Shown here piece after piece: positions 2 to 14,255 of a stretch of 64,000 bases of DNA (position 1 is the stretch's first letter; each line of letters opens with the position of its first letter). The stretch is from Escherichia coli (GTDB taxonomy: Bacteria > Pseudomonadota > Gammaproteobacteria > Enterobacterales > Enterobacteriaceae). The notes under the pieces were generated by a model. It did no database searches. It was given only the letters and a program-made list of their open reading frames with translations, and was not told the origin of the DNA. The stretch lies in the NCBI RefSeq assembly GCF_024700885.2, contig NZ_CP117016.1, one strand, 5' to 3'. A program made the position numbers and the translations under genes.

Positions 2-670
2 AGCCCGGAGTTTGCGCTTAAGTTTAACCAGACCGTGCTGAAAGAGTCAGAGCGCTTTATCAATGAGATGTCACATCGCATCGCGCGTGACCAGCTTGCC
101 TTTGCAGAAACGGAGATGGAAAAGGCACGCCAGCGTCTGGACGCCAGCAAAGCGGAATTGCTCTCTTATCAGGACAACAACAACGTTCTGGATCCACAGG
201 CACAGGCACAGGCGGCGAGCACGTTAGTCAATACGCTGATGGGCCAGAAGATCCAGATGGAAGCGGATCTGCGTAACTTGCTGACGTATCTGCGTGAGGA
301 CGCCCCGCAAGTAGTGAGTGCGCGTAATGCGATTCAGTCATTGCAGGCACAAATCGATGAAGAACAAAGCAAAATCACTGCGCCACAGGGTGACAAGCTA
401 AACCGTATGGCAGTGGATTTTGAAGAAATCAAATCAAAAGTAGAGTTCAACACCGAGCTGTACAAACTGACCCTGACCTCCATTGAAAAGACCCGTGTAG
501 AAGCGGCTCGTAAGCTCAAGGTGCTGTCAGTGATCAGTTCGCCACAGTTGCCGCAGGAATCGTCTTTTCCAAATATCCCTTATTTGATCGCCTGCTGGTT
601 ACTGGTGTGCTGCCTGCTGTTCGGCACCCTGAAACTGTTGCTGGCTGTTATTGAAGATCACCGAGACTAA
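2..670 (+). CDS. kpsE: Capsule export inner-membrane protein KpsE (polysaccharide co-polymerase family), C-terminal part; 5' end lies outside the window
   Basis: Open frame runs from the window edge; translation has a coiled-coil-rich periplasmic region and a C-terminal hydrophobic segment, and sits directly upstream of kpsD-kpsU-kpsC-kpsS in the conserved region 1 order. Confidence 0.85.
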   Translation, partial: SPEFALKFNQTVLKESERFINEMSHRIARDQLAFAETEMEKARQRLDASKAELLSYQDNNNVLDPQAQAQAASTLVNTLMGQKIQMEADLRNLLTYLREDAPQVVSARNAIQSLQAQIDEEQSKITAPQGDKLNRMAVDFEEIKSKVEFNTELYKLTLTSIEKTRVEAARKLKVLSVISSPQLPQESSFPNIPYLIACWLLVCCLLFGTLKLLLAVIEDHRD

Positions 671-690
671 CGCTGTCGCTGAATGAGTTT

Positions 691-2370
691 GTGATGAAAT
701 TATTTAAATCAATTTTACTGATTGCCGCCTGTCACGCGGCGCAGGCCAGCGCGGCCATTGATATTAACGCTGACCCAAACCTTACAGGAGCCGCGCCGCT
801 TACCGGTATTCTGAACGGGCAACAGTCGGATACGCAAAACATGAGCGGCTTCGACAATACCCCGCCGCCCTCACCGCCGGTGGTAATGAGCCGTATGTTT
901 GGTGCTCAACTTTTCAACGGCACCAGCGCGGATAGCGGTGCGACGGTAGGATTCAACCCTGACTATATTCTGAATCCGGGTGATAGCATTCAGGTTCGCT
1001 TGTGGGGTGCGTTCACCTTTGATGGTGCGTTACAGGTTGATCCCAAAGGTAATATTTTCCTGCCGAACGTTGGTCCGGTGAAAGTTGCTGGCGTCAGTAA
1101 TAGTCAGCTAAATGCCCTGGTCACATCCAAAGTGAAGGAAGTATACCAGTCCAACGTCAACGTCTACGCCTCCTTATTACAGGCGCAGCCAGTAAAAGTG
1201 TACGTGACCGGATTTGTGCGTAATCCTGGTCTGTATGGCGGTGTGACGTCTGATTCGTTACTCAATTATCTGATCAAGGCTGGCGGCGTTGATCCAGAGC
1301 GCGGAAGTTACGTTGATATTGTGGTCAAGCGCGGTAACCGCGTGCGCTCCAACGTCAACCTGTACGACTTCCTGCTGAACGGCAAACTGGGGCTTTCGCA
1401 GTTCGCCGATGGTGACACCATCATCGTCGGGCCGCGTCAGCATACTTTCAGCGTTCAGGGCGATGTCTTTAACAGCTACGACTTTGAGTTCCGCGAAAGC
1501 AGCATTCCCGTAACAGAAGCGTTGAGCTGGGCGCGCCCTAAGCCTGGCGCGACTCACATTACGATTATGCGTAAACAGGGGCTGCAAAAACGCAGCGAAT
1601 ACTATCCGATCAGTTCTGCACCAGGCCGTATGTTGCAAAATGGCGATACCTTAATCGTGAGCACTGACCGCTATGCCGGCACCATTCAGGTGCGGGTTGA
1701 AGGCGCGCACTCTGGTGAACATGCCATGGTACTGCCTTATGGTTCCACTATGCGTGCGGTTCTGGAAAAAGTCCGCCCGAACAGCATGTCGCAGATGAAC
1801 GCGGTTCAGCTTTATCGCCCATCAGTAGCTCAGCGTCAGAAAGAGATGCTGAATCTCTCGCTGCAAAAACTGGAGGAAGCCTCACTTTCTGCCCAGTCAT
1901 CCACCAAAGAAGAAGCCAGCCTGCGAATGCAGGAAGCACAACTGATCAGCCGCTTTGTGGCGAAAGCACGCACCGTGGTTCCGAAAGGTGAAGTGATCCT
2001 CAACGAATCCAATATTGATTCTGTTCTGCTTGAAGATGGCGACGTCATCAATATTCCGGAGAAAACATCGCTGGTTATGGTTCATGGCGAAGTGCTGTTC
2101 CCGAACGCGGTGAGCTGGCAGAAGGGTATGACCACCGAGGATTACATCGAGAAATGTGGTGGCCTGACGCAGAAATCGGGTAACGCCAGAATTATCGTCA
2201 TTCGTCAGAACGGTGCAGCCGTCAACGCAGAAGATGTGGATTCACTCAAACCGGGCGATGAGATTATGGTTCTGCCGAAATATGAATCGAAAAACATTGA
2301 AGTTACCCGTGGTATTTCCACCATCCTCTATCAGCTGGCGGTGGGTGCAAAAGTGATTCTGTCTTTGTAA
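691..2370 (+). CDS. kpsD: Capsule polysaccharide export outer-membrane/periplasmic protein KpsD (Wza/OPX family)
   Basis: About 558 aa with an N-terminal signal peptide (MKLFKSILLIAACHAAQA); position between kpsE and kpsU. Confidence 0.9.
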   Translation: MMKLFKSILLIAACHAAQASAAIDINADPNLTGAAPLTGILNGQQSDTQNMSGFDNTPPPSPPVVMSRMFGAQLFNGTSADSGATVGFNPDYILNPGDSIQVRLWGAFTFDGALQVDPKGNIFLPNVGPVKVAGVSNSQLNALVTSKVKEVYQSNVNVYASLLQAQPVKVYVTGFVRNPGLYGGVTSDSLLNYLIKAGGVDPERGSYVDIVVKRGNRVRSNVNLYDFLLNGKLGLSQFADGDTIIVGPRQHTFSVQGDVFNSYDFEFRESSIPVTEALSWARPKPGATHITIMRKQGLQKRSEYYPISSAPGRMLQNGDTLIVSTDRYAGTIQVRVEGAHSGEHAMVLPYGSTMRAVLEKVRPNSMSQMNAVQLYRPSVAQRQKEMLNLSLQKLEEASLSAQSSTKEEASLRMQEAQLISRFVAKARTVVPKGEVILNESNIDSVLLEDGDVINIPEKTSLVMVHGEVLFPNAVSWQKGMTTEDYIEKCGGLTQKSGNARIIVIRQNGAAVNAEDVDSLKPGDEIMVLPKYESKNIEVTRGISTILYQLAVGAKVILSL

Positions 2371-2379
2371 GGAGTTGAA

Positions 2380-3120
2380 ATGAGCAAAGCAGTTATTGTC
2401 ATTCCGGCTCGTTATGGCTCATCGCGCCTGCCGGGTAAGCCACTGCTCGATATTGTTGGTAAACCGATGATCCAGCATGTTTACGAGCGTGCGTTACAGG
2501 TGGCGGGCGTTGCGGAAGTTTGGGTGGCAACAGACGATCCGCGTGTTGAACAGGCCGTGCAGGCATTTGGCGGGAAAGCCATCATGACGCGCAACGATCA
2601 TGAATCCGGCACCGATCGGCTGGTCGAGGTGATGCATAAAGTCGAGGCAGATATCTACATTAACCTGCAGGGCGACGAACCAATGATTCGCCCGCGGGAT
2701 GTAGAAACGCTGTTACAAGGAATGCGTGATGACCCCGCGTTGCCAGTGGCAACGCTATGCCACGCGATTTCTGCCGAAGAAGCTGCTGAGCCAAGCACGG
2801 TAAAAGTGGTGGTAAATACCCGCCAGGATGCGCTTTATTTCAGCCGTTCGCCTATTCCGTATCCGCGTAATGCTGAAAAAGCGCGCTACCTGAAACACGT
2901 TGGTATTTACGCTTATCGTCGCGATGTGCTGCAAAACTACAGCCAGTTACCGGAGTCCATGCAGGAGCAGGCAGAATCACTGGAGCAGCTGCGGTTGATG
3001 AGCGCGGGGATCAACATCCGCACATTTGAGGTTGCCGCAACCGGTCCGGGCGTCGACACCCCAGCATGCCTGGAAAAAGTGCGCGCCCTGATGGCACAGG
3101 AACTGGCTGAAAACGCATGA
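2380..3120 (+). CDS. kpsU: CMP-Kdo synthetase (3-deoxy-manno-octulosonate cytidylyltransferase), capsule-specific paralogue
   Basis: 246 aa; N-terminal [16 protein letters not shown] nucleotidyltransferase motif typical of KdsB/KpsU; RBS GGAG upstream. Confidence 0.9.
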
Positions 3121-5144
3121 TTGGCATTTTCTCGTCCGGTATCTGGCGTATTCCGCATCTGGAGAAATTTCTGGCGCAACCGTGCCAGAAACTTTCTCTG
3201 CTGCGCCCTGTTCCGCAAGAAGTTGATGCTATCGCCGTGTGGGGACATCGTCCCAGCGCGGCGAAACCAGTCGCCATCGCCAAAGCAGCGGGAAAACCCG
3301 TCATTCGTCTGGAAGATGGATTTGTGCGTTCGCTGGATCTTGGCGTCAATGGCGAGCCGCCGCTTTCTCTGGTGGTGGATGATTGTGGCATTTACTACGA
3401 TGCCAGCAAGCCTTCAGCACTGGAGAAACTGGTACAGGATAAAGCCGGAAATACAGCTCTGATAAGTCTGGCCAGAGAAGCGATGCACACCATCGTGACC
3501 GGGGATTTGTCGAAATATAACCTGGCACCTGCGTTTGTGGCTGATGAGTCAGAACGTTCAGACATCGTTCTGGTTGTCGATCAGACATTTAATGATATGT
3601 CAGTGACGTATGGCAATGCTGGCCCGCATGAGTTTGCTGCCATGCTGGAAGCCGCGATGGCGGAAAATCCTCAAGCCGAAATTTGGGTGAAGGTGCACCC
3701 AGATGTACTGGAAGGAAAGAAAACAGGTTATTTCGCTGATCTGCGCGCCACGCAACGAGTACGTTTGATTGCTGAGAATGTCAGCCCGCAGTCGCTGTTG
3801 CGACACGTTTCCCGGGTTTACGTCGTGACCTCCCAGTATGGCTTTGAAGCCTTGCTGGCAGGAAAACCAGTAACATGTTTCGGCCAGCCCTGGTATTCAG
3901 GTTGGGGCTTAACCGACGATCGTCATCCACAGTCCGCTTTGTTATCTGCCCGACGCGGTTCTGCCACGCTGGAGGAACTTTTTGCCGCTGCATACCTGCG
4001 TTACTGTCGCTATATCGATCCGCAAACGGGAGAAGTAAGCGATATATTTACTGTGCTGCAATGGCTGCAATTACAACGTCGACATCTGCAACAGCGTAAT
4101 GGTTATTTATGGGCGCCAGGCTTAACGCTGTGGAAGTCAGCGATCCTGAAACCTTTCTTGCAAACGGCAACAAACCGGCTGAGTTTTTCACGTCGTTGTA
4201 CTGCGGCGAGCGCCTGCGTGGTATGGGGTGTAAAGGGAGAACAGCAATGGCGAGCCGAAGCGCAACGAAAATCACTGCCGTTATGGCGAATGGAAGATGG
4301 TTTTCTGCGTTCATCCGGACTTGGCTCTGACCTTTTGCCGCCGCTATCGTTGGTCCTGGATAAACGCGGGATCTACTATGACGCCACGCGCCCCAGCGAC
4401 CTGGAAGTGTTGCTTAATCACAGCCAGTTAACACTGGCGCAGCAGATGCGAGCTGAGAAGTTGCGGCAACGGGTGGTTGAAAGCAAACTGAGCAAATACA
4501 ACCTAGGGGCCGATTTCTCTCTGCCTGCCGAAGCCCAAGATAAAAAAATCATCCTGGTGCCGGGTCAGGTAGAAGACGATGCCTCAATTAAAACAGGCAC
4601 TGTGTCGATTAAGAGCAACCTTGAGTTATTACGCACAGTACGCGAGCGCAATCCGCACGCCTACATTGTTTATAAACCGCACCCGGATGTACTGGTGGGG
4701 AATCGCAAGGGCAATATTCCGACAGAACTAATTGCTGAACTCGCTGATTATCAGGCACTGGACGCAGATATTATTCAATGCATTCAGCGCGCAGATGAAG
4801 TGCACACCATGACATCATTGTCCGGGTTTGAAGCGTTATTACATGGCAAGCAAGTTCATTGTTACGGCCTGCCCTTCTATGCCGGTTGGGGTTTAACCGT
4901 TGATGAACATCACTGCCCGCGCCGCGAACAAAAATTAACGTTAGCAGATTTGATCTATCAGGCGTTGATTGTTTATCCAACCTATATCCACCCAACACGG
5001 CTACAACCTATTACGGTTGAAGAGGCGGCGGAATATTTGATCCAGACGCCGCGCAAGCCGATGTTTATTACCCGAAAAAAAGCGGGACGAGTCATACGCT
5101 ATTACCGCAAATTAATTATGTTCTGCAAGGTCAGATTTGGCTAA
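3117..5144 (+). CDS. kpsC: Capsule beta-Kdo transferase KpsC (tandem duplicated domains)
   Basis: 675 aa; internal duplication visible in the translation (two copies of ...GFVRS.GLG...PPLSLV.D..GIYYDA... and ...[12 protein letters not shown]...); start overlaps kpsU stop (ATGA). Confidence 0.9.
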
Positions 5145-5178
5145 ACAATTTCATAGTTGACTATTACACAAATTATTT

Positions 5179-6414
5179 ATGCAAGGTAATGCACTAACCG
5201 TTTTATTATCCGGTAAAAAATATCTGCTATTGCAGGGGCCAATGGGACCCTTTTTCAGTGATGTTGCCGAGTGGCTAGAGTCATTAGGTCGTAACGCTGT
5301 GAATGTAGTATTCAACGGCGGGGATCGTTTTTACTGCCGTCATCGACAATACCTGGCTTACTACCAAACGCCGAAAGAGTTTCCCGGATGGTTACGGGAT
5401 CTCCATCGGCAATATGACTTTGATACCATCCTCTGCTTTGGTGACTGCCGCCCATTGCACAAAGAAGCAAAACGCTGGGCAAAGTCGAAAGGGATCCGCT
5501 TTCTGGCATTTGAGGAAGGATATTTACGCCCGCAATTTATTACCGTTGAAGAAGGCGGAGTGAACGCATATTCATCGCTACCGCGCGATCCGGATTTTTA
5601 TCGTAAGTTACCAGATATGCCTGCGCCGCACGTTGAGAACTTAAAACCTTCAACGATGAAACGCATTGGCCATGCGATGTGGTATTACCTGATGGGCTGG
5701 CATTACCGTCATGAGTTCCCTCGCTACCGCCACCACAAATCATTTTCCCCCTGGTATGAAGCTCGTTGCTGGGTTCGTGCGTACTGGCGCAAGCAACTTT
5801 ACAAGGTAACACAGCGTAAAGTATTGCCGCGGTTAATGAATGAGCTGGATCAGCGTTATTATCTTGCCGTTTTGCAGGTGTATAACGATAGCCAGATTCG
5901 TAACCACAGCAATTATAACGATGTGCGAGATTATATTAATGAAGTCATGTACTCATTTTCGCGTAAAGCGCCAAAAGAAAGTTATTTGGTGATCAAGCAC
6001 CATCCAATGGATCGTGGTCACAGACTCTATCGACCATTAATTAAACGGTTGAGTAAGGAATATGGCTTAGGTGAGCGCGTCATTTATGTGCACGATCTCC
6101 CGATGCCGGAATTGTTACGCCACGCAAAAGCGGTGGTGACAATTAACAGTACGGCGGGGATATCTGCGCTGATTCACAACAAACCACTCAAAGTGATGGG
6201 CAATGCCCTGTACGACATCAAAGGCTTGACGTATCAAGGGCATTTGCACCAGTTCTGGCAGGCCGATTTTAAACCGGATATGAAACTGTTTAAGAAGTTT
6301 CGGGGGTATTTATTGGTGAGGACGCAGATTAATGGGGTTTATTATGGTGATAGATGTTTTGAACATGATATTAAGGTGGATAAGGATTCTTGGAGTCTTA
6401 CACGTCAAGTTTGA
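5179..6414 (+). CDS. kpsS: Capsule beta-Kdo transferase KpsS
   Basis: About 400 aa, same fold family as the KpsC domains; last gene of region 1; the precise start codon is uncertain. Confidence 0.85.
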   Translation: MQGNALTVLLSGKKYLLLQGPMGPFFSDVAEWLESLGRNAVNVVFNGGDRFYCRHRQYLAYYQTPKEFPGWLRDLHRQYDFDTILCFGDCRPLHKEAKRWAKSKGIRFLAFEEGYLRPQFITVEEGGVNAYSSLPRDPDFYRKLPDMPAPHVENLKPSTMKRIGHAMWYYLMGWHYRHEFPRYRHHKSFSPWYEARCWVRAYWRKQLYKVTQRKVLPRLMNELDQRYYLAVLQVYNDSQIRNHSNYNDVRDYINEVMYSFSRKAPKESYLVIKHHPMDRGHRLYRPLIKRLSKEYGLGERVIYVHDLPMPELLRHAKAVVTINSTAGISALIHNKPLKVMGNALYDIKGLTYQGHLHQFWQADFKPDMKLFKKFRGYLLVRTQINGVYYGDRCFEHDIKVDKDSWSLTRQV

Positions 6415-6574
6415 AGATTAATATTTTTTAACAAAAATGGCTAATCATTACTTGTTAACCATTTAGTAAACTGCAAAAACACGAAATTATCAATTATACA
6501 AAACTTCAAGATTATTAATTAAATAACAAAAAAACGAACATATCTTAACTTTATGAAAAATAAATAATAATATA

Positions 6575-7711
6575 TTAATACAAACTCTCTAACTTATCTT
6601 TTTTAATTTTTGTATCTTCTTTTAAATACTCACACAGCCAGCGAATACGTTGCTTAAAACTCATATTTTCAAGCGATGAAAATGAATATGACAAAATGTA
6701 TTTTTGAATATACTCAGGACAAGACTCAATATTTAATATGTCATCGCCAACGTGAAATAAATTATGTTTATAATAAGATAATATCTTTTTAGGAATAAAA
6801 ACATTTTCTTTGCAATTACCATTGACTATAACACCGCATGGTATTTTACGAGAATGAAACTGAACTTCCATTGCTGATATATCTGTTAATGCATATGATA
6901 CTTTTATATTATTAGTTATCTTTCTTCGTAATTTAATTAGGGGGAATCGAGTTCCTTCAATGAATCCATTTGTTATTTTATAAACAATTAAACCAGCTTT
7001 CGTGAAAAGCCTAATACTCTCATTAAGAATGGCTTTGTATTTATGATCTCGATGACCTATGTTTGGATGTGCTTGTATATAAAGAATATTTATTTTTTTG
7101 ATTTTACAAAATTTTATTATCTTATGTGTGGTTTCATTATTTATCGAACTATAATTTTCTTCTGGGATTCCCCCCTCCCATGTTGGAGCATATACAGCAG
7201 AACGAGAATTTACATCAAACTGAAAATAATTATGTCCAATGAAAGTATTTCCTAATTTAATTACTTTCCCATTTCTAATATCGAATGGTGTAAAAATTCC
7301 GGACTTAAGGTATCTATCAATACCTACATCTCCAGAAGTGACTACGTAATCATAAATTTTTATAATCGGTTTTACAGAAGCAAGTTTATGGCTTTCACCA
7401 TGTGTAACAAAAACGTGAATCAGGTTTCTATTTGCCACAATACGACAATTTGATTGAGCGTTGAATAAATAGAAAACAATTTTACCATTATTAAAAACCA
7501 AGTCTGAATTTTTCTTAATAAATTTAAATGAAATATTATGTTTATTAAACTCCTCAGTAAATTTTTTTTCTATTTCTTTATAGTACTTACAATACACACT
7601 TATGCAATCCTCCACATTGAATACTTGTGCCTGAAAATAACGAATTAACTGTTCCAAAGCTCCTTCAATTTTTGTATCAATATATAAATAGTATAGGTTA
7701 TTAACAGACAC
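6575..7711 (-). CDS. Region 2 TagF-like CDP-polyol phosphotransferase (teichoic-acid-type)
   Basis: 378 aa; contains the YAPTWEG motif characteristic of CDP-glycerol/ribitol phosphotransferases (TagF/TagB family); AT-rich codon usage. Confidence 0.6.
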   Translation of the reverse strand: MSVNNLYYLYIDTKIEGALEQLIRYFQAQVFNVEDCISVYCKYYKEIEKKFTEEFNKHNISFKFIKKNSDLVFNNGKIVFYLFNAQSNCRIVANRNLIHVFVTHGESHKLASVKPIIKIYDYVVTSGDVGIDRYLKSGIFTPFDIRNGKVIKLGNTFIGHNYFQFDVNSRSAVYAPTWEGGIPEENYSSINNETTHKIIKFCKIKKINILYIQAHPNIGHRDHKYKAILNESIRLFTKAGLIVYKITNGFIEGTRFPLIKLRRKITNNIKVSYALTDISAMEVQFHSRKIPCGVIVNGNCKENVFIPKKILSYYKHNLFHVGDDILNIESCPEYIQKYILSYSFSSLENMSFKQRIRWLCEYLKEDTKIKKDKLESLY

Positions 7712-7727
7712 AATATATACCTTTTAT

Positions 7728-9101
7728 TTATCGCCCATCTTTTCTAACGTCTATAATAAGACCCGTGCTATTAGCTCCTAATACTTTGAGGCTTGTCAGG
7801 GCAACATCTCTAGGATCTAATAATAACTCTGCAGGTTCAATGCCAAAGTTGATGGTACGCATTGGAGTTGCAGTTCGTTCAGGGTTAATACAGTTTACTT
7901 TAATATTTTCAGATGACCATTCCTCAGCTATTGCTTGTGTAAAGTTTACGATAGCAGCTTTTGATGAGGAATAAAGAGCATAATATGAACGGCCACGCGT
8001 GTATGAACTTGAAGTAAAATTAAGTAGCATCCCTGAAGATTTCTTCAAATATTGCTTGGATGCCATCGCTATATTTACAGCCCCAATAAAATTTATATTT
8101 ATTAGAGTATGAACTTCTTCATTTGTTAACATATCAATAGGTTTTTTTATCAAAACCCCAGCAGTATTAATGATATAATCGATGCAACCTAACTTTTTCT
8201 CCATTTGAGCAAGATAGTTTTTTACACACTCAATATCAACAATATCAACATTATTGAAGCTACGGCTAGCAATTTCAACATTCGCGCCTAATAAAATAGC
8301 TGCTTTCTTTATCTCAAGACCAATCCCGCTGTTTCCACCAAATATAATTATATTTTTACCTTTGATATAATCGAGATTATCACCAGTGTTAAATGAAATT
8401 TTATTTGCTTCCTGAAGAAGCTTCTCAGCAATAAAAAGATCAATTGGGTGTGTAACTTTCATGTTTGATTCAGCACCAACCACAGTTGCTACACGTACAC
8501 CAGGTACCATTGAGCGTACAACACCACAATCACAAGTAAAACTAAATCGCTGAGCATTGATGGCACGTTGATAGGCCTGTTTCAGCGTCCCTAATTTAAA
8601 TGCCTGAGGGGTCTGGCCCCGGCGCATTACAGCCCTGTTTGGAATATTAGAAATACATCCATCGTCATACACTTCGACGAGCGTATCAGCGGATGGAATT
8701 ACAACATCTACAGCCTCAAAATTTCTTAAAGCATCAATGCAATTATTAATAATTGATTCATTAATTAATGGTCTTACTGCATCATGAAGTAAAATATTAG
8801 AATTGTTATCTTCTCCCTCAAGACCTTGTAATGCAGAATAGGTTGAATCAAATCGCTCTTTTCCACCATTAAAAACTTTTGTAACTTTTTTCCATTGATT
8901 TTTTTTTACAAATTTCCAAATTAGGTCCACATAACTTGGGTGAGATACGATAATAATTTCATCAATATTCAATGATTTTTCAAAAGCTTCTACTGTGTAC
9001 TCAATTACAGCCTTACCTGCTAATTTTGTAAATTGTTTCGGAAGTGTACCGCCAAATCTTGCCCCCATACCCCCCGATAGAATAACAGCAATATTTTTCA
9101 T
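7728..9101 (-). CDS. Bifunctional CDP-polyol synthase: N-terminal IspD/TarI-like cytidylyltransferase fused to C-terminal short-chain dehydrogenase/reductase (Haemophilus Bcs1-like CDP-ribitol synthase architecture)
   Basis: N-terminus MKNIAVILSGGMGARFG..LPKQF (cytidylyltransferase); C-terminal half has the SDR glycine-rich NAD(P) motif IIIFGGNSGIGLE. The track ORF begins 30 codons upstream, but the ATG at 9101 is preceded by a GGTGGA RBS and matches the family N-terminus. Confidence 0.7.
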   Translation of the reverse strand: MKNIAVILSGGMGARFGGTLPKQFTKLAGKAVIEYTVEAFEKSLNIDEIIIVSHPSYVDLIWKFVKKNQWKKVTKVFNGGKERFDSTYSALQGLEGEDNNSNILLHDAVRPLINESIINNCIDALRNFEAVDVVIPSADTLVEVYDDGCISNIPNRAVMRRGQTPQAFKLGTLKQAYQRAINAQRFSFTCDCGVVRSMVPGVRVATVVGAESNMKVTHPIDLFIAEKLLQEANKISFNTGDNLDYIKGKNIIIFGGNSGIGLEIKKAAILLGANVEIASRSFNNVDIVDIECVKNYLAQMEKKLGCIDYIINTAGVLIKKPIDMLTNEEVHTLININFIGAVNIAMASKQYLKKSSGMLLNFTSSSYTRGRSYYALYSSSKAAIVNFTQAIAEEWSSENIKVNCINPERTATPMRTINFGIEPAELLLDPRDVALTSLKVLGANSTGLIIDVRKDGR

Positions 9102-9201
9102 TTTTCCACCATATAATTTTATAAATGCAATAAATATAAGAATCATTAAATATGACACAACATGATATTTAAAATGTTGTGTCATACACAAACAAATAAA
9201 A

Positions 9202-12200
9202 TTAATGAATAATCTTCTTAGATAGCTTAATTATTACATTACCCAGCACTGGCTTTAATATTGGATTAAATGCCGTTTTGCCAGCAAGTCTAACAATTTT
9301 TTTATTTGAATCAGAGAAGAACATTTCAGGATTTCGTTCAAGTTTATTGAGAAGTCTTATCTTTCTGCTGTCAGAAGTTTGTGCTGCTAAATGTTGATTA
9401 ATTTTAGCCGGTTCTTTTATCTTTACTTTTGAAGTATTAGTTGGTAGTACTTTTTGCTTGGCGTTACTAGGTTTAGCAGATAAGGCTTTAGGGTTTTTAA
9501 GATATTCTTGATATTCTTTTTTTATCGAAGGTGTTGATCTTGCTAAACTCATTTTAATAGATCTTGTAAAAGCACCAACTGGTTTTCCTTGTTTTAATAA
9601 GGCTAAAGATTCTGAAGTGATTGCTGGTGCAAATTCCCTTAATGCTCCCAGAGATGCTTCAGAGTATAACAAATGAGCCATTGAGTTTACTAATACCGGA
9701 TCATCTTGATGATCTCTATACCATTCAAAAGCAAAGCTTGAGAAGTGACGCTCAATTGTGCTTACATCAGATGTGAAGGGTAAGCTATAAAATTCGTTCA
9801 CGAAATTTTTCAAGTACTTACCTAGAGACCAATAGAGTTCAGCATCAAACCTAGCCCGAGCAATAACAGGTACAATTTTTTTTAATTCTCGCTTATAGCC
9901 CGTGACAGTACCATGTGGACAATTAGCAAATATAGCCTCGACAGGAATGAGTGATATATTATTAGTGCTATAATTTATTCTAATATCATTATCAATGGAT
10001 GGGAGAATACTTCGATAATAATAGAATACGCATTCGGAAGGCTTATCAAAAGCATTATCTATAAGTTTTCTTAAACATGTCTGTGTATACCCTCTGGCCC
10101 AATATTCTACGAATGCATATTTTTCATCCGGATTGATTTCTTGTTTGATATAATCAATAACGATCTTTCTCTCTTCTTTAGCCTTCTCAATCAAATAATC
10201 ATGATACTTTGTGGATTTGCTAAAAAACTCTCTGAGTGCAACAAGTTCTGCAGGGCTAATTTTAGAGGATTTGTTGAGCCCAGTTTCTGGAAAAAGCTTT
10301 TGAAATAAATTATGACTGATACTTAATGAAGAAATTAACTTATCATAATTATCAACACCAACCAAATTACCAAAATTAGAGAAAAACTCATCATCAATAC
10401 TTTCAATCATTGCAGGAACACGCCATGCTCGACGAGAACCATAAAAATATTTCGTTTTGATATTCAGTTTTTTCAAACTAACATATGCGTCAGCAATTTC
10501 TTTAAGAAAATGTCCATCTCGCGACACAAAATATAATGTTTCAATCCCTCTATCAATGGCATCCCTAATACACCAAGCAACATATGGAACCATATAACCT
10601 GAGACATGCGCGTAACAGAAATAATCTTTTTCATTAATGCTATTAAAACGCATTCGAGATAACAGACCGGTCAGAAGATAAGAATTGTAATTTCGTATTT
10701 TATTAATCAAAGCAGTTTCATAAGCATTGATTTTCGGTATTTTATGTATTTGAGGTTTTATTCCTAATTCCTTAGCTTTTGTTCCATCTGATGTAGCATT
10801 ATCACCATAATGAATCCATTCTTTAAAGCGCCAAGGAGAATGGTCTTTATAAACCCTAAGATATAACTGCTGGCTTGCTTTTTGCACACCATACTCAGAG
10901 GATAGATACAACGGCAACTTATTTAATAAAGGACTTACGTGAGCCAGCATATTCGAAATAACTTCTTTAGGTAGATACATGTCCGATATTAATACAACCG
11001 TTTCATTCTCTTTAACCAGTTGCTCGGCTTTTTTCACCATCTCATCTATGGGAATTACGTTTTCATATTCAGCCTGTACTTCCCAATCCATTAGCTTAGT
11101 AATTTGACTGTCATTTAGATTATATACTGATTGTATTCTTGAGAATATGTCTCGATAGCTAATTTCATAATGTCCAATGGTCTTGATCAATAACTCTCGG
11201 CAATTTGCTTCTGCTTGCATCCTGATATTAACATAATCAGTATGGAAGATTTCAGGGAACCCCTCATCAGAAGCTTTTATTAATTCCATAACCTTATAGA
11301 AAATACCTTTTGGAATTAAGCATTTACGTCCAATAAGAGTATCAAAAACATCAAAACTATAAAACGTTGGCAAAACCCCTTTATTACCAATTTTAAATTG
11401 ATTCGTTTGATTAATTATATTTTCAAATGTATTTTCATCATCATACGACCAAAATAACTCTTTTATTTTTTCAAGATTATTATCAGAATAAGTTTGATAT
11501 TCATCAATAGCATTAATTAACTCACCAAAACTTTGACACATTTTTCCTGATGTGTGCGATTGATAATCATAAAGCATGATGTGTTTTTCATCGTCAAAAT
11601 CAAAAATATATCTAATGAAATTCTTAACACCTGCAGATACCAAATCATAATAAATTGACGAATAATCTATTATTGCCAGATCAATTTTATTGAAAATTTC
11701 ATATATATCATTCTTATTATCCCAGAAAATAATATTTCTATATTGACCCACCTGTTTTTGAAGTGTTTTAAAATAAAAATCATTAGATATTTCAGGATGC
11801 AATTTAATAATTAGGCATAAATTATTTTTCTCTAGTGTTTTAGATAAAATATTTATATCCTTAATCGCCAAATAGAGGAAATTCTTAGGATTTTTCTCTC
11901 TAAATGTCGGCGCGTACAATGCTAGCTTCGTATCTTTAGGCAACCCAGCCTGAGAAATAATATCATGATTATAAGTAACTACAGGCTCGTATAATGATTG
12001 ATAAATGCAACGTGGGTAACCACCTCTTATAATTTGGTCATCAGTTAAATCCAGCTGTTCTTTAAAATGTTTCTCCATAAATGGAGACGTTACCAAAAAA
12101 CACATATTATTGCTGAATTGCTCATTATATGTTATGTGCTTTTTAGCGATTCTTTGATATAAATATTCTCTATCAGCCTTCTTCTCTATTTGCTTTAATC

Positions 12201-12525
12201 CAACACCATGATACAAATTTAATATTTTAGTATTTAACAACTCTTTTGGGTATATTTCCTTACAATGCTCATTTACATAAACACCAGCAGCATTTAATAA
12301 TTGAGCACCTTCTTTTGATTTAAAATGACATGCATTAAAACCTAACGATTTAATATAGTCTACATTTTTCTGATCACCACTGATATAACAAGCAAAAATA
12401 TCAGGTCGATAGTTTGAAATATATATAAACAGATATTTCACATTCCCTGTAAATAGACCGGCACTATTAAATAACCAGATGTTATCTTTAGTATAATTAT
12501 TAATTACATAGTTAATATCTTGCAT
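9202..12525 (-). CDS. Multi-domain capsule polymerase: TagF-like polyol-phosphate transferase domain, HAD-like phosphatase domain, a further C-terminal domain and a lysine-rich tail
   Basis: 1107 aa; LYAPTFR motif (TagF family) in the N-terminal third; FDVFDTLIGRK (HAD motif I) and HYGDNATSDG (HAD motif III/IV-like) mid-protein; basic Lys-rich C-terminus; AT-rich. Confidence 0.6.
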   Translation of the reverse strand: MQDINYVINNYTKDNIWLFNSAGLFTGNVKYLFIYISNYRPDIFACYISGDQKNVDYIKSLGFNACHFKSKEGAQLLNAAGVYVNEHCKEIYPKELLNTKILNLYHGVGLKQIEKKADREYLYQRIAKKHITYNEQFSNNMCFLVTSPFMEKHFKEQLDLTDDQIIRGGYPRCIYQSLYEPVVTYNHDIISQAGLPKDTKLALYAPTFREKNPKNFLYLAIKDINILSKTLEKNNLCLIIKLHPEISNDFYFKTLQKQVGQYRNIIFWDNKNDIYEIFNKIDLAIIDYSSIYYDLVSAGVKNFIRYIFDFDDEKHIMLYDYQSHTSGKMCQSFGELINAIDEYQTYSDNNLEKIKELFWSYDDENTFENIINQTNQFKIGNKGVLPTFYSFDVFDTLIGRKCLIPKGIFYKVMELIKASDEGFPEIFHTDYVNIRMQAEANCRELLIKTIGHYEISYRDIFSRIQSVYNLNDSQITKLMDWEVQAEYENVIPIDEMVKKAEQLVKENETVVLISDMYLPKEVISNMLAHVSPLLNKLPLYLSSEYGVQKASQQLYLRVYKDHSPWRFKEWIHYGDNATSDGTKAKELGIKPQIHKIPKINAYETALINKIRNYNSYLLTGLLSRMRFNSINEKDYFCYAHVSGYMVPYVAWCIRDAIDRGIETLYFVSRDGHFLKEIADAYVSLKKLNIKTKYFYGSRRAWRVPAMIESIDDEFFSNFGNLVGVDNYDKLISSLSISHNLFQKLFPETGLNKSSKISPAELVALREFFSKSTKYHDYLIEKAKEERKIVIDYIKQEINPDEKYAFVEYWARGYTQTCLRKLIDNAFDKPSECVFYYYRSILPSIDNDIRINYSTNNISLIPVEAIFANCPHGTVTGYKRELKKIVPVIARARFDAELYWSLGKYLKNFVNEFYSLPFTSDVSTIERHFSSFAFEWYRDHQDDPVLVNSMAHLLYSEASLGALREFAPAITSESLALLKQGKPVGAFTRSIKMSLARSTPSIKKEYQEYLKNPKALSAKPSNAKQKVLPTNTSKVKIKEPAKINQHLAAQTSDSRKIRLLNKLERNPEMFFSDSNKKIVRLAGKTAFNPILKPVLGNVIIKLSKKIIH

Positions 12526-12784
12526 TTATAAAACGCTCTCTGAATTTTTTACTTATGATAAACACCACATAATTGTGGTAATATTATATTTAACTAAAAG
12601 TGTGAATATTTATAGTGGAGTTTATAATTCAAATCATGACTTATAGCCTATTATCTTATTTATTTAAATCTGAATCATGTACGCATATAAAAGACAAACG
12701 ATTTATTTTAAAGAAAAAACAAATAAAGGAAATTATAACTTACAGTAATTAGAAGACTATTTAGTCTGATTGTTATATAAAATC

Positions 12785-13441
12785 TTATTCTTGTTTATAC
12801 TCATCGATCCCCTCCTGAACATCCTCATAAAAACTAACCACATTGTCATCCTTAAACACAATCGCCACATCACAAAACTCTTTCAATGAATTCAAACTAT
12901 GTGAAACCATTAAAAAACTAGATTCTTTATGCCTTTCTTTAAACAATTGAGCGCATTTTTCTTTAAACCTGGCATCACCGACTGCAGTTACTTCATCGAC
13001 GATATAATAATCAAACTTAAATGCCATGCTTAAACCAAAGCCTAAACGCGATCGCATACCAGATGAGTAAGTTTTAATCGGCATATCGAAGTACTTACCG
13101 AGTTCGGCAAATTCTTCGACAAACTCAATTTTCTCTTTCAGCTCTTCTTGCTTCGCGTATAACCGCGCAACAAATTTTACGTTTTCGCGTCCGGTTAAAC
13201 TTCCCTGAAATCCACCTGCGAGGCCGACTGGCCATGATATTGTTTTATTAGTGATGATCTTTCCACTGTCGGGGCGGTCAATGCCGCCAATCATTCTCAG
13301 TAACGTTGATTTACCCGCTCCGTTGCGACCAATAAAGGCAACACTTTTTCCTGAAGGGATTTCAATATTTAAATCCTTAAAGACATAATGTCGACCCGCT
13401 GGCGTGCGATATGACTTCGTCAAATTTTCAATCTTAATCAT
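12785..13441 (-). CDS. kpsT: Capsule export ABC transporter ATP-binding protein KpsT
   Basis: 218 aa; Walker A GRNGAGKST, ABC signature YSSGMRSRL, Walker B YYIVDE; overlaps the kpsM stop. Confidence 0.92.
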   Translation of the reverse strand: MIKIENLTKSYRTPAGRHYVFKDLNIEIPSGKSVAFIGRNGAGKSTLLRMIGGIDRPDSGKIITNKTISWPVGLAGGFQGSLTGRENVKFVARLYAKQEELKEKIEFVEEFAELGKYFDMPIKTYSSGMRSRLGFGLSMAFKFDYYIVDEVTAVGDARFKEKCAQLFKERHKESSFLMVSHSLNSLKEFCDVAIVFKDDNVVSFYEDVQEGIDEYKQE

Positions 13442-14214
13442 GATGTCAGCATTGCCTCTTCACGCGTTCGGTATAAAGCCAGACCGATGAACAGGGTGAC
13501 CAGAGTGAACATTGCAAGGTAGTTCAGACTAACGCCTTCGCTGATATAGCCAGGCATAACTGCCTCGCGGCTTAACTCTACGACATGCACTAATGGGTTC
13601 CAGAGTAGATATGACCAGTATTGCTTTGGAATTGAGTGCAGAGGGAACATGATGCAGGAGATGAAATACAGCGGCTTAAGCAGTATCGGCAGGACCTTTT
13701 GCATTTCAGGGAAAGTCTTACCAACGACCATGAATATTAAGCCGACGCCACATGAAAGAATGATTAACAAACTCCAGGTGAGCACAAGTTGTAAAAAATT
13801 TGTTATCTCGAAATATTCGCCTGCCATCCTGACAATGAGCATAAGCAGAATATAAACAGCAACGTAAATCAGCGTCTCAAGCAGGGCGCGCGCAATGATC
13901 GTATCGATGGGTTTTACTGGGCGATAATTAAACAGCCCCAGGTTCGCTTCAATAGCACTTACAGAACGTTTGCTGATACTGCTAAAGATAAAAAAGGGAA
14001 TCAGGCCATTAAGTAAAAACACCGGGAATGAGATGTCTGGCATCGTGCGGTGCATAATGTAACCAAAAATGCCCAACAGTATCAGCAAATGCGCAGAGGG
14101 TTCGAGAATCGCCCACAGATATCCCAGACGGAACTTACCAAAGCGTGTTCGTATTTCTCGTAGAAATAATGCCTCTACGGTGACTTTCTGGACTTCAAAT
14201 CCACTTCTTGCCAT
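13438..14214 (-). CDS. kpsM: Capsule export ABC transporter permease KpsM
   Basis: Polytopic ABC-2 type permease; start chosen at MARSGFEVQK (about 258 aa) rather than the longer track ORF, because an ops-like element lies inside the longer ORF. Confidence 0.88.
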   Translation of the reverse strand: MARSGFEVQKVTVEALFLREIRTRFGKFRLGYLWAILEPSAHLLILLGIFGYIMHRTMPDISFPVFLLNGLIPFFIFSSISKRSVSAIEANLGLFNYRPVKPIDTIIARALLETLIYVAVYILLMLIVRMAGEYFEITNFLQLVLTWSLLIILSCGVGLIFMVVGKTFPEMQKVLPILLKPLYFISCIMFPLHSIPKQYWSYLLWNPLVHVVELSREAVMPGYISEGVSLNYLAMFTLVTLFIGLALYRTREEAMLTS

Positions 14215-14243: not shown

Positions 14244-14255
14244 ACGCTACCGCCC
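14244..14255 (-). promoter_or_regulatory. ops-like element (RfaH recruitment site, JUMPstart) in the region 3 leader about 30 nt upstream of the kpsM start
   Basis: Minus strand reads GGCGGTAGCGTA, matching the ops core GGCGGTAG at the position expected ahead of kpsM. Confidence 0.65.

Follow-up and report, generated by a model that had tools for sequence, protein, structure and literature searches.

The capsule polymerase gene lies in the serotype-specific part (region 2) of a group 2 (kps) capsule locus of E. coli, within the 64,000-nucleotide stretch of DNA analysed here (the window). Region 2 has a low GC content (0.28-0.34) and sits between kpsFEDUCS and kpsMT. It holds three genes, encoding the polymerase, a CDP-ribitol synthase and a protein of 378 aa, in the same order as in the K18_K22 reference cluster (Table 1). 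The leader of region 3 carries an ops element; in E. coli kps regulation, ops has a role in the RfaH-dependent extension of transcription beyond region 3 into region 2. The synthase scored 172.5 against NCBIfam NF001183 (D-ribitol-5-phosphate cytidylyltransferase; cutoff 166) and also gave SDR matches. Its length is 457 aa from the RefSeq start (7728..9101), as against 485 aa in the kTYPr catalogue.

Table 1. Features of the capsule locus and of the polymerase, in window positions.
Feature	Position	Strand	Basis or remarks
kpsF, E, D, U, C, S (region 1 + kpsC/kpsS)	35..6414	plus	ORFs; RefSeq annotation of the identical locus of strain MLI114
Uncharacterised GT-B protein (378 aa), TagF-like invariant motifs	6575..7711	minus	candidate ribitol-phosphate priming (transition) transferase
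CDP-ribitol synthase (Bcs1-like), putative donor supply for CroT	7728..9191	minus	NCBIfam, SDR matches, RefSeq annotation
Capsule polymerase gene	9202..12525	minus	1107 aa + stop codon; full-length Bcs3 homologue; corresponds to K18_K22_9 (kTYPr)
C-terminal helical bundle	9205..9375	minus	aa 1051-1107; four predicted helices, pLDDT ~90
Disordered Lys-rich linker	9376..9483	minus	aa 1015-1050; pLDDT 30-51, no secondary structure
CriT, PRPP-dependent ribofuranose-5-phosphate transferase	9484..10746	minus	aa 594-1014; predicted function
CrpP, HAD-like phosphatase with helical cap	10747..11388	minus	aa 380-593; aligns with Bcs3 CrpP 374-591
CroT, TagF-like ribitol-5-phosphate transferase using CDP-ribitol	11389..12525	minus	aa 1-379; predicted function
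kpsT, region 3 ABC exporter	12785..13441	minus	RefSeq annotation of the identical MLI114 locus
kpsM, region 3 ABC exporter	13438..14214	minus	RefSeq annotation of the identical MLI114 locus
ops element GGCGGTAG	14247..14254	minus	sequence search; immediately upstream of kpsM, in the leader of region 3

The polymerase ORF opens with an ATG, and its coordinates in the ORF listing include the stop codon. Judged by sequence comparison, it is a real gene. A chance reading frame is excluded because several complete E. coli genomes carry the same protein at 100% identity, annotated as a CDS, and because it has 232 homologues (E <= 1e-10). A phmmer search of the PDB matched aa 14-1020 to chain residues 4-1030 of Bcs3 (8a0c/9h50; E = 1e-179), the Haemophilus influenzae type b (Hib) capsule polymerase whose structures are PDB 8A0C, 8A0M and 9H50 (Cifuente et al. 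2023, PMC10299916). The AF2 model (pLDDT 89.1) likewise aligned by Foldseek with 8a0m_C, and also with 8a0c, over about 1030 columns (E = 9e-86, TM 0.79, 34% identity). The five residues validated by mutagenesis in Bcs3, H96, H233, D386, D680 and E818, correspond to H106, H243, D392, D670 and E807; the first four do not vary across an alignment of 37 homologues (A1), in which E807 reaches a conservation of at least 90%. The first-pass annotation had described a multi-enzyme capsule polymerase, and the full-length homology to Bcs3, the conserved catalytic residues and the kps setting all bear this out.

The homology spans three catalytic domains, CroT, CrpP and CriT, arranged as in Bcs3. The motifs quoted earlier are all present: LYAPTFR at aa 203-209 (11899..11919; YAPTFR, aa 204-209, lies in CroT), FDVFDTL at aa 391-397 (11335..11355) and GDNATSD at aa 574-580 (10786..10806). 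The presumed TagF-like phosphotransferase region is CroT, which aligns with Bcs3 CroT residues 1-373 and contains the conserved catalytic histidines H106 and H243. It is covered by the only Pfam family found in the protein, PF04464 (TagF-type; aa 12-372, E = 1.8e-35, model positions 11-363 of 367), and its fold matches TagF (3l7j) and TarL (8va1) in Foldseek. A search of NCBIfam with the polymerase returned no family. In Pfam, the HAD profiles remained below threshold and the C-terminal domain had no match; these two domains are therefore recognised through the solved structure of Bcs3.

In CrpP, the nucleophile D392 (Bcs3 D386), motif II S514/D515, motif III K549 (Bcs3 K548) and the motif IV acidic residues D575/D580 are all invariant in A1. 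Motif I has only its first Asp, the +2 position being F394, exactly as in Bcs3 CrpP. The core and the helical cap are modelled with pLDDT > 90 and superpose on Bcs3, so that the HAD fold proposed for the centre of the protein passes the check on both residues and structure. CriT aligns with Bcs3 CriT 592-1036 (D670 = D680, E807 = E818), and the ribofuranosyltransferase of Thermobacillus composti (7shg) appears as a secondary fold match of the model. The C-terminal domain had been thought to be either a glycosyltransferase or a novel module; the former holds and the latter does not, as it has the known CriT ribofuranosyltransferase fold (8A0C; related 7SHG).

By homology with Bcs3, a polymerisation cycle can be proposed. 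In Bcs3, CriT moves ribofuranose-5-phosphate from PRPP, CrpP strips the 5-phosphate and CroT uses CDP-ribitol to attach ribitol-phosphate (PMC10299916); the traits that define the Bcs3 type include a head-to-tail dimer and the making of ribosyl-ribitol-phosphate polymer from PRPP and CDP-ribitol. In the window, CriT would add ribofuranose-5-phosphate from PRPP to the chain, CrpP would take the 5-phosphate off the new terminal ribose, and CroT would add ribitol-phosphate from CDP-ribitol supplied by the adjacent Bcs1-like enzyme. The finished chain would leave through KpsMT/KpsED. We infer the substrates and the order of steps by analogy with Bcs3, and the linkages from the published polymer. 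The earlier suggestion that an embedded phosphatase trims a phosphorylated intermediate agrees with the published Bcs3 mechanism (PMC10299916) and is supported. The literature searched contained no biochemical work on the E. coli polymerase. For K18, the structure in the literature is ->2)-beta-D-Ribf-(1->2)-D-ribitol-(5->P->; PMC10299916 describes K18 as Ribf(1->2)ribitol in which 5-P->2 Ribf follows, and the Hib polymer as Ribf(1->1)ribitol followed by 5-P->3 Ribf. This implies that the acceptor regiospecificities of both CriT and CroT differ from those of the Hib enzyme.

Which serotype the locus specifies was judged from the kTYPr catalogue. In its 485-aa form, the synthase has the same MD5 as K18_K22_8, and the locus is therefore of the K18/K22 type; the synthase of EC958, a KL100 strain, has instead the MD5 of K100_8. 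The identities to EC958 are 82% for the polymerase, 99% for the synthase and 97% for the 378-aa ORF, matching the published K18_K22 versus K100 values (82.13, 98.9 and 97.1). Among 5426 complete genomes, the polymerase alleles formed two groups only, 18 at >=99% identity and 113 at ~88%. An apparent third allele (78.5% identity, 42% coverage) proved to be a K100 gene truncated by IS1 and not a new type. The K18 and K22 clusters are identical, and the acetyltransferase relevant to O-acetylation is probably encoded at another site in the genome.

The MD5 match of the synthase, the identities to EC958 and the two allele groups weigh against the locus being of the K100 type or an unnamed relative, with ->3)-Ribf-(1->2)-ribitol-5-P as its product in place of the 2-linked polymer. 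Such a reading can appeal to the K100 polymerase itself (EC958, WP_001152330.1; K100_9), which has the same length (1107 aa, no gaps), architecture and three-gene region 2, and gene ends that are nearly identical. It can also appeal to the MD5 of the polymerase, which differs from the one that the supplement lists for K18_K22_9. That digest, however, also stands beside K154 rows, and the MD5 column is therefore unreliable there; it appears to be misaligned in those rows, or else the reference differs by a few residues. On balance, we consider a K100 assignment unlikely and retain K18/K22. Residues 1-100 and 951-1107 of the two polymerases are 94-100% identical, whereas aa ~100-950 are only 66-86% identical (~70-77% nucleotide identity, nt 301-2700). 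The centre of the polymerase thus looks like a recombination block carrying the K18/K22 versus K100 serotype difference. K100, described by Rodriguez et al. 1988 and Tsui et al. 1988, reportedly has its ribitol-P on O3 of the ribose (O2 in K18/K22).

The third region 2 gene encodes a protein with no match in NCBIfam and no sequence match in the PDB; in Pfam, it gave only a sub-threshold match to DUF7014. It has 288 homologues, and all of the 120 listed are named 'hypothetical'. The family has the invariant motifs H104-G-E-S, Y174-APTWEGG, H215-P-N and D277/S279, and the AF2 model (pLDDT 86.6) gave fold matches to Bcs3 and to GT-B enzymes. A BLASTP comparison with CroT yielded nothing beyond weak, out-of-register matches and a short shared YAPT motif, and so offers no support for close homology. 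The family adjoins a CDP-ribitol synthase in all four other loci read; the capsule loci in which the two occur together have KpsC/KpsS and come from E. coli, Acinetobacter and Psychrobacter. The 378-aa protein may represent an undescribed family of ribitol-phosphate transition transferases, joining the poly-Kdo anchor to the polymer. The paper on transition transferases (PMC11666461) does not mention Bcs2, Bcs4, K18 or K100.

With its TagF-like invariant motifs, its GT-B fold and a CDP-ribitol synthase always alongside in the loci read, the 378-aa protein might even be the enzyme that adds ribitol-phosphate in elongation, CroT performing another step such as priming. We hold this to be very improbable: Bcs3 was the sole polymerase when Hib polymer synthesis was reconstituted in vitro (Cifuente et al., PMC10299916), the catalytic histidines of CroT are conserved in the window polymerase, and some loci with the 378-aa family also have separate TagF-like transferases of their own. 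That the TagF-like domain polymerises glycerol-phosphate from CDP-glycerol, with the HAD and C-terminal domains accessory or inactive, could be read from the RefSeq product name (CDP-glycerol glycerophosphotransferase family protein) and from PF04464 being named after a glycerophosphotransferase, but is rejected as extremely improbable, since the locus has a CDP-ribitol synthase and no CDP-glycerol synthase, the closest solved relative, Bcs3, uses CDP-ribitol, and the conserved catalytic residues of CrpP and CriT argue against decay. The RefSeq name denotes the family and does not assign a substrate. We conclude that the ORF very probably encodes a ribosyl-ribitol-phosphate group 2 capsule polymerase, a three-enzyme machine of the Bcs3 type, most likely that of K18/K22.

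The polymerase departs from Bcs3 at the C-terminus. Bcs3 has 1215 aa and an SH3b polymer-binding domain, whereas the window polymerase has 1107 aa and, in the corresponding place, the disordered Lys-rich linker. An SH3b domain was sought after CriT and is absent: the homology to Bcs3 ends at about aa 1020, and the model is then disordered, followed by helices only. The Lys-rich tail of the first-pass annotation is real, albeit moderate, with 16 K in the 93 residues of aa 1015-1107 (17%, against 9% over the whole polymerase). The bundle that ends the protein has a hydrophobic moment of 0.45-0.56; its motif is kept in Gram-negative homologues (~1080-1110 aa) and missing from Gram-positive ones (~1020-1049 aa), and it probably serves membrane or partner association.

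The SH3b domain is also missing from the homologues of E. coli K18, S. epidermidis and C. botulinum (supplement of the Bcs3 paper, PMC10299916) and is therefore not universal in the Bcs3-type family. The alignment to Bcs3 in that supplement includes the homologues from E. coli K18 together with STP42972.1, an E. coli homologue fused into a single polypeptide. In the K18 genome of the same paper, CroT and CrpP-CriT are two ORFs, in contrast to their fusion in the window; the fused STP42972.1 resolves this seeming conflict. Previous work already covers the family and its mechanism, the members in E. coli and the absence of SH3b. Disruption of SH3b inactivates Bcs3 in vitro (PMC10299916), and since the domain is missing here, polymer handling must differ. 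The polymerase may hold its polyanionic product via the linker at aa 1015-1050 or via a partner protein; if so, this would be another solution to processivity than that of Bcs3. The joint reading, in which product holding is linker- or partner-based and the 378-aa protein is an undescribed family of priming transferases, is possible, though we rate it as rather doubtful.

The Hib vaccine antigen is made by an enzyme of the same class as this polymerase. Chemically, the polymers of E. coli K100 and, by extension, of K18/K22 are closely related to it, and the title of Tsui et al. 1988 describes K100 as cross-reactive with Hib. The near-isogenic K18/K22 and K100 polymerases, one linkage apart, could be used to map the determinants of CroT regiospecificity, and both could yield defined ribosyl-ribitol-phosphate antigens enzymatically.

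Among known systems, Bcs3 is the nearest: the two enzymes share domain order, about 1000 homologous residues, catalytic residues and a C-terminal helical tail, and both loci have a Bcs1-type CDP-ribitol synthase. The same pair of HAD phosphatase and PRPP-dependent ribofuranosyltransferase is found in the dual enzyme of T. composti (7SHG; Kelly et al. 2022), which matched the polymerase model with a Foldseek E = 4e-20 but low TM (0.24/0.42), and in the E. coli Kdo/Ribf capsule enzymes (K13_K23 to K19 set). In those enzymes, however, the pair is combined with Kdo transferases or other modules and not with a TagF-like ribitol-phosphate transferase. Conversely, the TagF/TarL wall teichoic acid polymerases and the TagF-like capsule polymerases Cps3D/Cps7D of Actinobacillus pleuropneumoniae have the fold and the two catalytic histidines in common with CroT but are without the phosphatase and ribofuranosyltransferase domains, Cps3D/Cps7D having TPR domains and hexose transferases instead.

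The 1107-residue protein carries the three motifs quoted in the first-pass annotation, LYAPTFR (aa 203-209), FDVFDTL (aa 391-397) and GDNATSD (aa 574-580), and its tail is rich in lysine (17% of the last 93 residues against 9% of the whole protein). Pfam recognised a single family in it, the TagF-type PF04464 (aa 12-372, E = 1.8e-35), and an NCBIfam search recognised none; without structure-based resources, therefore, the other ≈700 residues look unassigned. A search of PDB sequences returned one strong match, to Bcs3, the capsule polymerase of Haemophilus influenzae type b (Hib) (E = 1e-179, aa 14-1020 versus chain residues 4-1030). An AlphaFold2 model, built from an alignment of 37 collected homologues, had a mean pLDDT of 89.1. 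Compared with the PDB using Foldseek, it matched Bcs3 (8A0M and 8A0C; E ≈9e-86, TM 0.79, 34% identity over ≈1030 columns), followed by a Thermobacillus composti ribofuranosyltransferase-phosphatase (7SHG, E = 4e-20), TagF (3L7J, E ≈4e-15) and TarL (8VA1, E ≈3e-11). Bcs3 consists of a TagF-like ribitol-5-phosphate transferase (CroT, 1-373), a HAD-like phosphatase (CrpP, 374-591), a PRPP-dependent ribofuranose-5-phosphate transferase with a new GT fold (CriT, 592-1036), an SH3b polymer-binding domain (1037-1115) and, at the C-terminus, amphipathic helices (PMC10299916). Mutation of H96, H233, D386, D680 or E818 inactivates it (PMC10299916). These residues align with H106, H243, D392, D670 and E807 of the window protein. 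Across the 37 aligned sequences the first four are invariant and E807 is conserved to at least 90%; S514, K549, D575 and D580 of HAD motifs II-IV are invariant too. Of the HAD DxD motif the protein has the first Asp only, as does Bcs3 CrpP; D395 of FDVFDTL lies three residues after D392 and not at the canonical +2 position of the general acid. The polymerase thus belongs to an already described family, with structure and mechanism reported in 2023.

Positions of the features discussed (nucleotides of the window unless marked aa)
Feature	Position	Strand	Remarks
378-aa hypothetical protein	6575..7711	-	region 2 gene adjoining the synthase gene
CDP-ribitol synthase (predicted, Bcs1-type)	7728..9191	-	start ambiguous
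Polymerase ORF	9202..12525	-	ATG start, 1107 residues
CroT domain	aa 1-379		mapped from Bcs3
CrpP domain	aa 380-593		mapped from Bcs3
CriT domain	aa 594-1014		mapped from Bcs3
Lys-rich linker of polymerase	9376..9483	-	aa 1015-1050
Region 2	6000..13000		28-34% GC
ops element GGCGGTAG	14247..14254	-	≈33 nt upstream of RefSeq kpsM start (14214)
1527-aa ORF	22246..26829	-	beyond the gsp type II secretion operon

The polymerase ORF, found with identical sequence in several complete E. coli genomes, lies in the serotype-specific region 2 of a classical E. coli group 2 capsule locus. In the MLI114 annotation, kpsF, kpsE, kpsD, kpsU (kdsB), kpsC and kpsS stand on one flank, and kpsT and kpsM followed by the gsp operon on the other. 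These flanking genes have 50-58% GC, and the much lower GC of region 2 is consistent with a foreign source for its serotype-specific genes. These are three in number and code for the polymerase, a bifunctional cytidylyltransferase/SDR protein and a 378-aa hypothetical protein. The second of these scored above the curated cutoff of the D-ribitol-5-phosphate cytidylyltransferase subfamily and also matched SDR reductases; its sequence identifies it as a predicted Bcs1-type CDP-ribitol synthase. Its start differs between sources: 487 aa from a TTG in the mechanical ORF, 485 aa in kTYPr (a catalogue of E. coli K loci) and 457 aa in RefSeq, which begins at 9101 with MKNIAV. The 28-30 additional N-terminal residues of the longer forms are hydrophobic and may be untranslated. 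An ops element at this place, just upstream of kpsM, would be expected if transcription running from region 3 into region 2 depends on RfaH. The GGCGGTAG octamer occurs five times in the window compared with 1.2 expected by chance; the other copies, at 5724, 34687, 50092 and 57167, are all on the (-) strand.

These data establish the homology, fold, catalytic residues and donor supply of the polymerase, and its substrates and order of steps would be those of Bcs3. By this homology, each repeating unit would be added in three steps: CriT would transfer Ribf-5-P from PRPP to the terminal ribitol, CrpP would then take off the 5-phosphate, and CroT would add ribitol-phosphate from CDP-ribitol. The earlier proposal that an embedded phosphatase trims a phosphorylated intermediate is thus confirmed as to the domain and supported as to its interpretation. 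It needs correction at one point only: of the two options offered for the C-terminal domain, glycosyltransferase or novel module, the first holds, since CriT is a transferase and a known module.

Among 5426 complete E. coli genomes, the polymerase gene was present at ≥99% identity in 18 and as an allele of ≈88% nucleotide identity in 113; one further match was an IS1-truncated copy of this second allele, which is that of strain EC958, typed KL100/K100. At the protein level, the window and EC958 share 82% identity in the polymerase, 99% in the synthase and 97% in the 378-aa protein, and the kTYPr values for K18_K22 versus K100 are 82.13% (gene 9), 98.908% (gene 8) and 97.098% (gene 7) (PMC13171606). 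The decisive test was the MD5 digest of the 485-aa synthase, which equals that printed for K18_K22_8; that of the EC958 synthase equals K100_8. The window locus is therefore most likely, from its sequence, of the K18/K22 type. For the polymerase, the digest differed from the one given beside K18_K22_9, a value to which we gave no weight because it also stands beside unrelated K154 rows. The K18 and K22 clusters are identical, and the serotypes differ only in O-acetylation, thought to be encoded elsewhere in the genome. This exact locus is already catalogued in kTYPr (2026). Aligned with its K100 counterpart (L002:3190-6513), the polymerase gene is mosaic, with 93.7% identity over nt 1-300, 70-77% over nt 301-2700, 84.3% over nt 2701-3000 and ≈99% over nt 3001-3321. 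Since the proteins encoded by the flanking genes share 97-99% identity, the serotype difference falls within the central ≈2.5 kb, which spans all three catalytic domains and looks like a recombination block. In strain EC190759 (L003:9190-12416), an IS1A insertion truncates the K100 polymerase gene, and region 1 is missing together with the remainder of region 2; in TUM13770, the annotation breaks the region 2 genes of the K100 type into several pieces, three CDS of the polymerase family and three labelled hypothetical. Disruption of K100 region 2 appears to be a recurrent route to capsule loss.

The 378-aa protein had no match in Pfam, NCBIfam or PDB sequences, and among 120 listed of its 288 homologues all named entries are 'hypothetical'. 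The invariant residues of the family (H-G-E-S, YAPTWEGG, H-P-N, D-x-S) resemble the TagF signature, and a confident model (pLDDT 86.6) has a GT-B fold with Bcs3 as top PDB match, though at a TM of only 0.48. In all four other loci considered (two other E. coli K loci, one Psychrobacter, one Acinetobacter), all of the KpsC/KpsS type, a homologue lies one or two genes from a Bcs1-like CDP-ribitol synthase, and CrpP-CriT is variably present. We infer that its function is linked to ribitol-phosphate; like CpsA/CpsC (PMC11666461), to which we draw the analogy, the protein may be a priming (transition) transferase that joins the polymer to the Kdo linker.

The window polymerase differs from Bcs3 in lacking the SH3b domain, the homology ending near aa 1020. 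At this position the model has the disordered Lys-rich linker (pLDDT 30-51), which might bind the polyanionic product, and then four helices (aa 1051-1106). The helical-tail motif is kept in homologues of ≈1080-1110 aa, mostly Gram-negative, and is missing from Gram-positive ones of ≈1020-1049 aa, in agreement with the published specificity of the terminal helices for Gram-negative systems (PMC10299916). The linkages, taken from the literature on the assigned serotype K18, are Ribf(1->2)ribitol and 5-P->2 Ribf (PMC10299916), so acceptor regiospecificity would be unlike that of Hib in both transferase domains. E. coli members were already discussed in the 2023 Bcs3 paper, whose supplement reports K18 homologues without SH3b as well as a fused E. 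coli homologue, STP42972.1 (PMC10299916). In the K18 genome used there, CroT and CrpP-CriT are two ORFs (STI11141.1, STI11142.1) (PMC10299916), whereas the window polymerase is fused, like K18_K22_9 and K100_9 of kTYPr (both 1107 aa).
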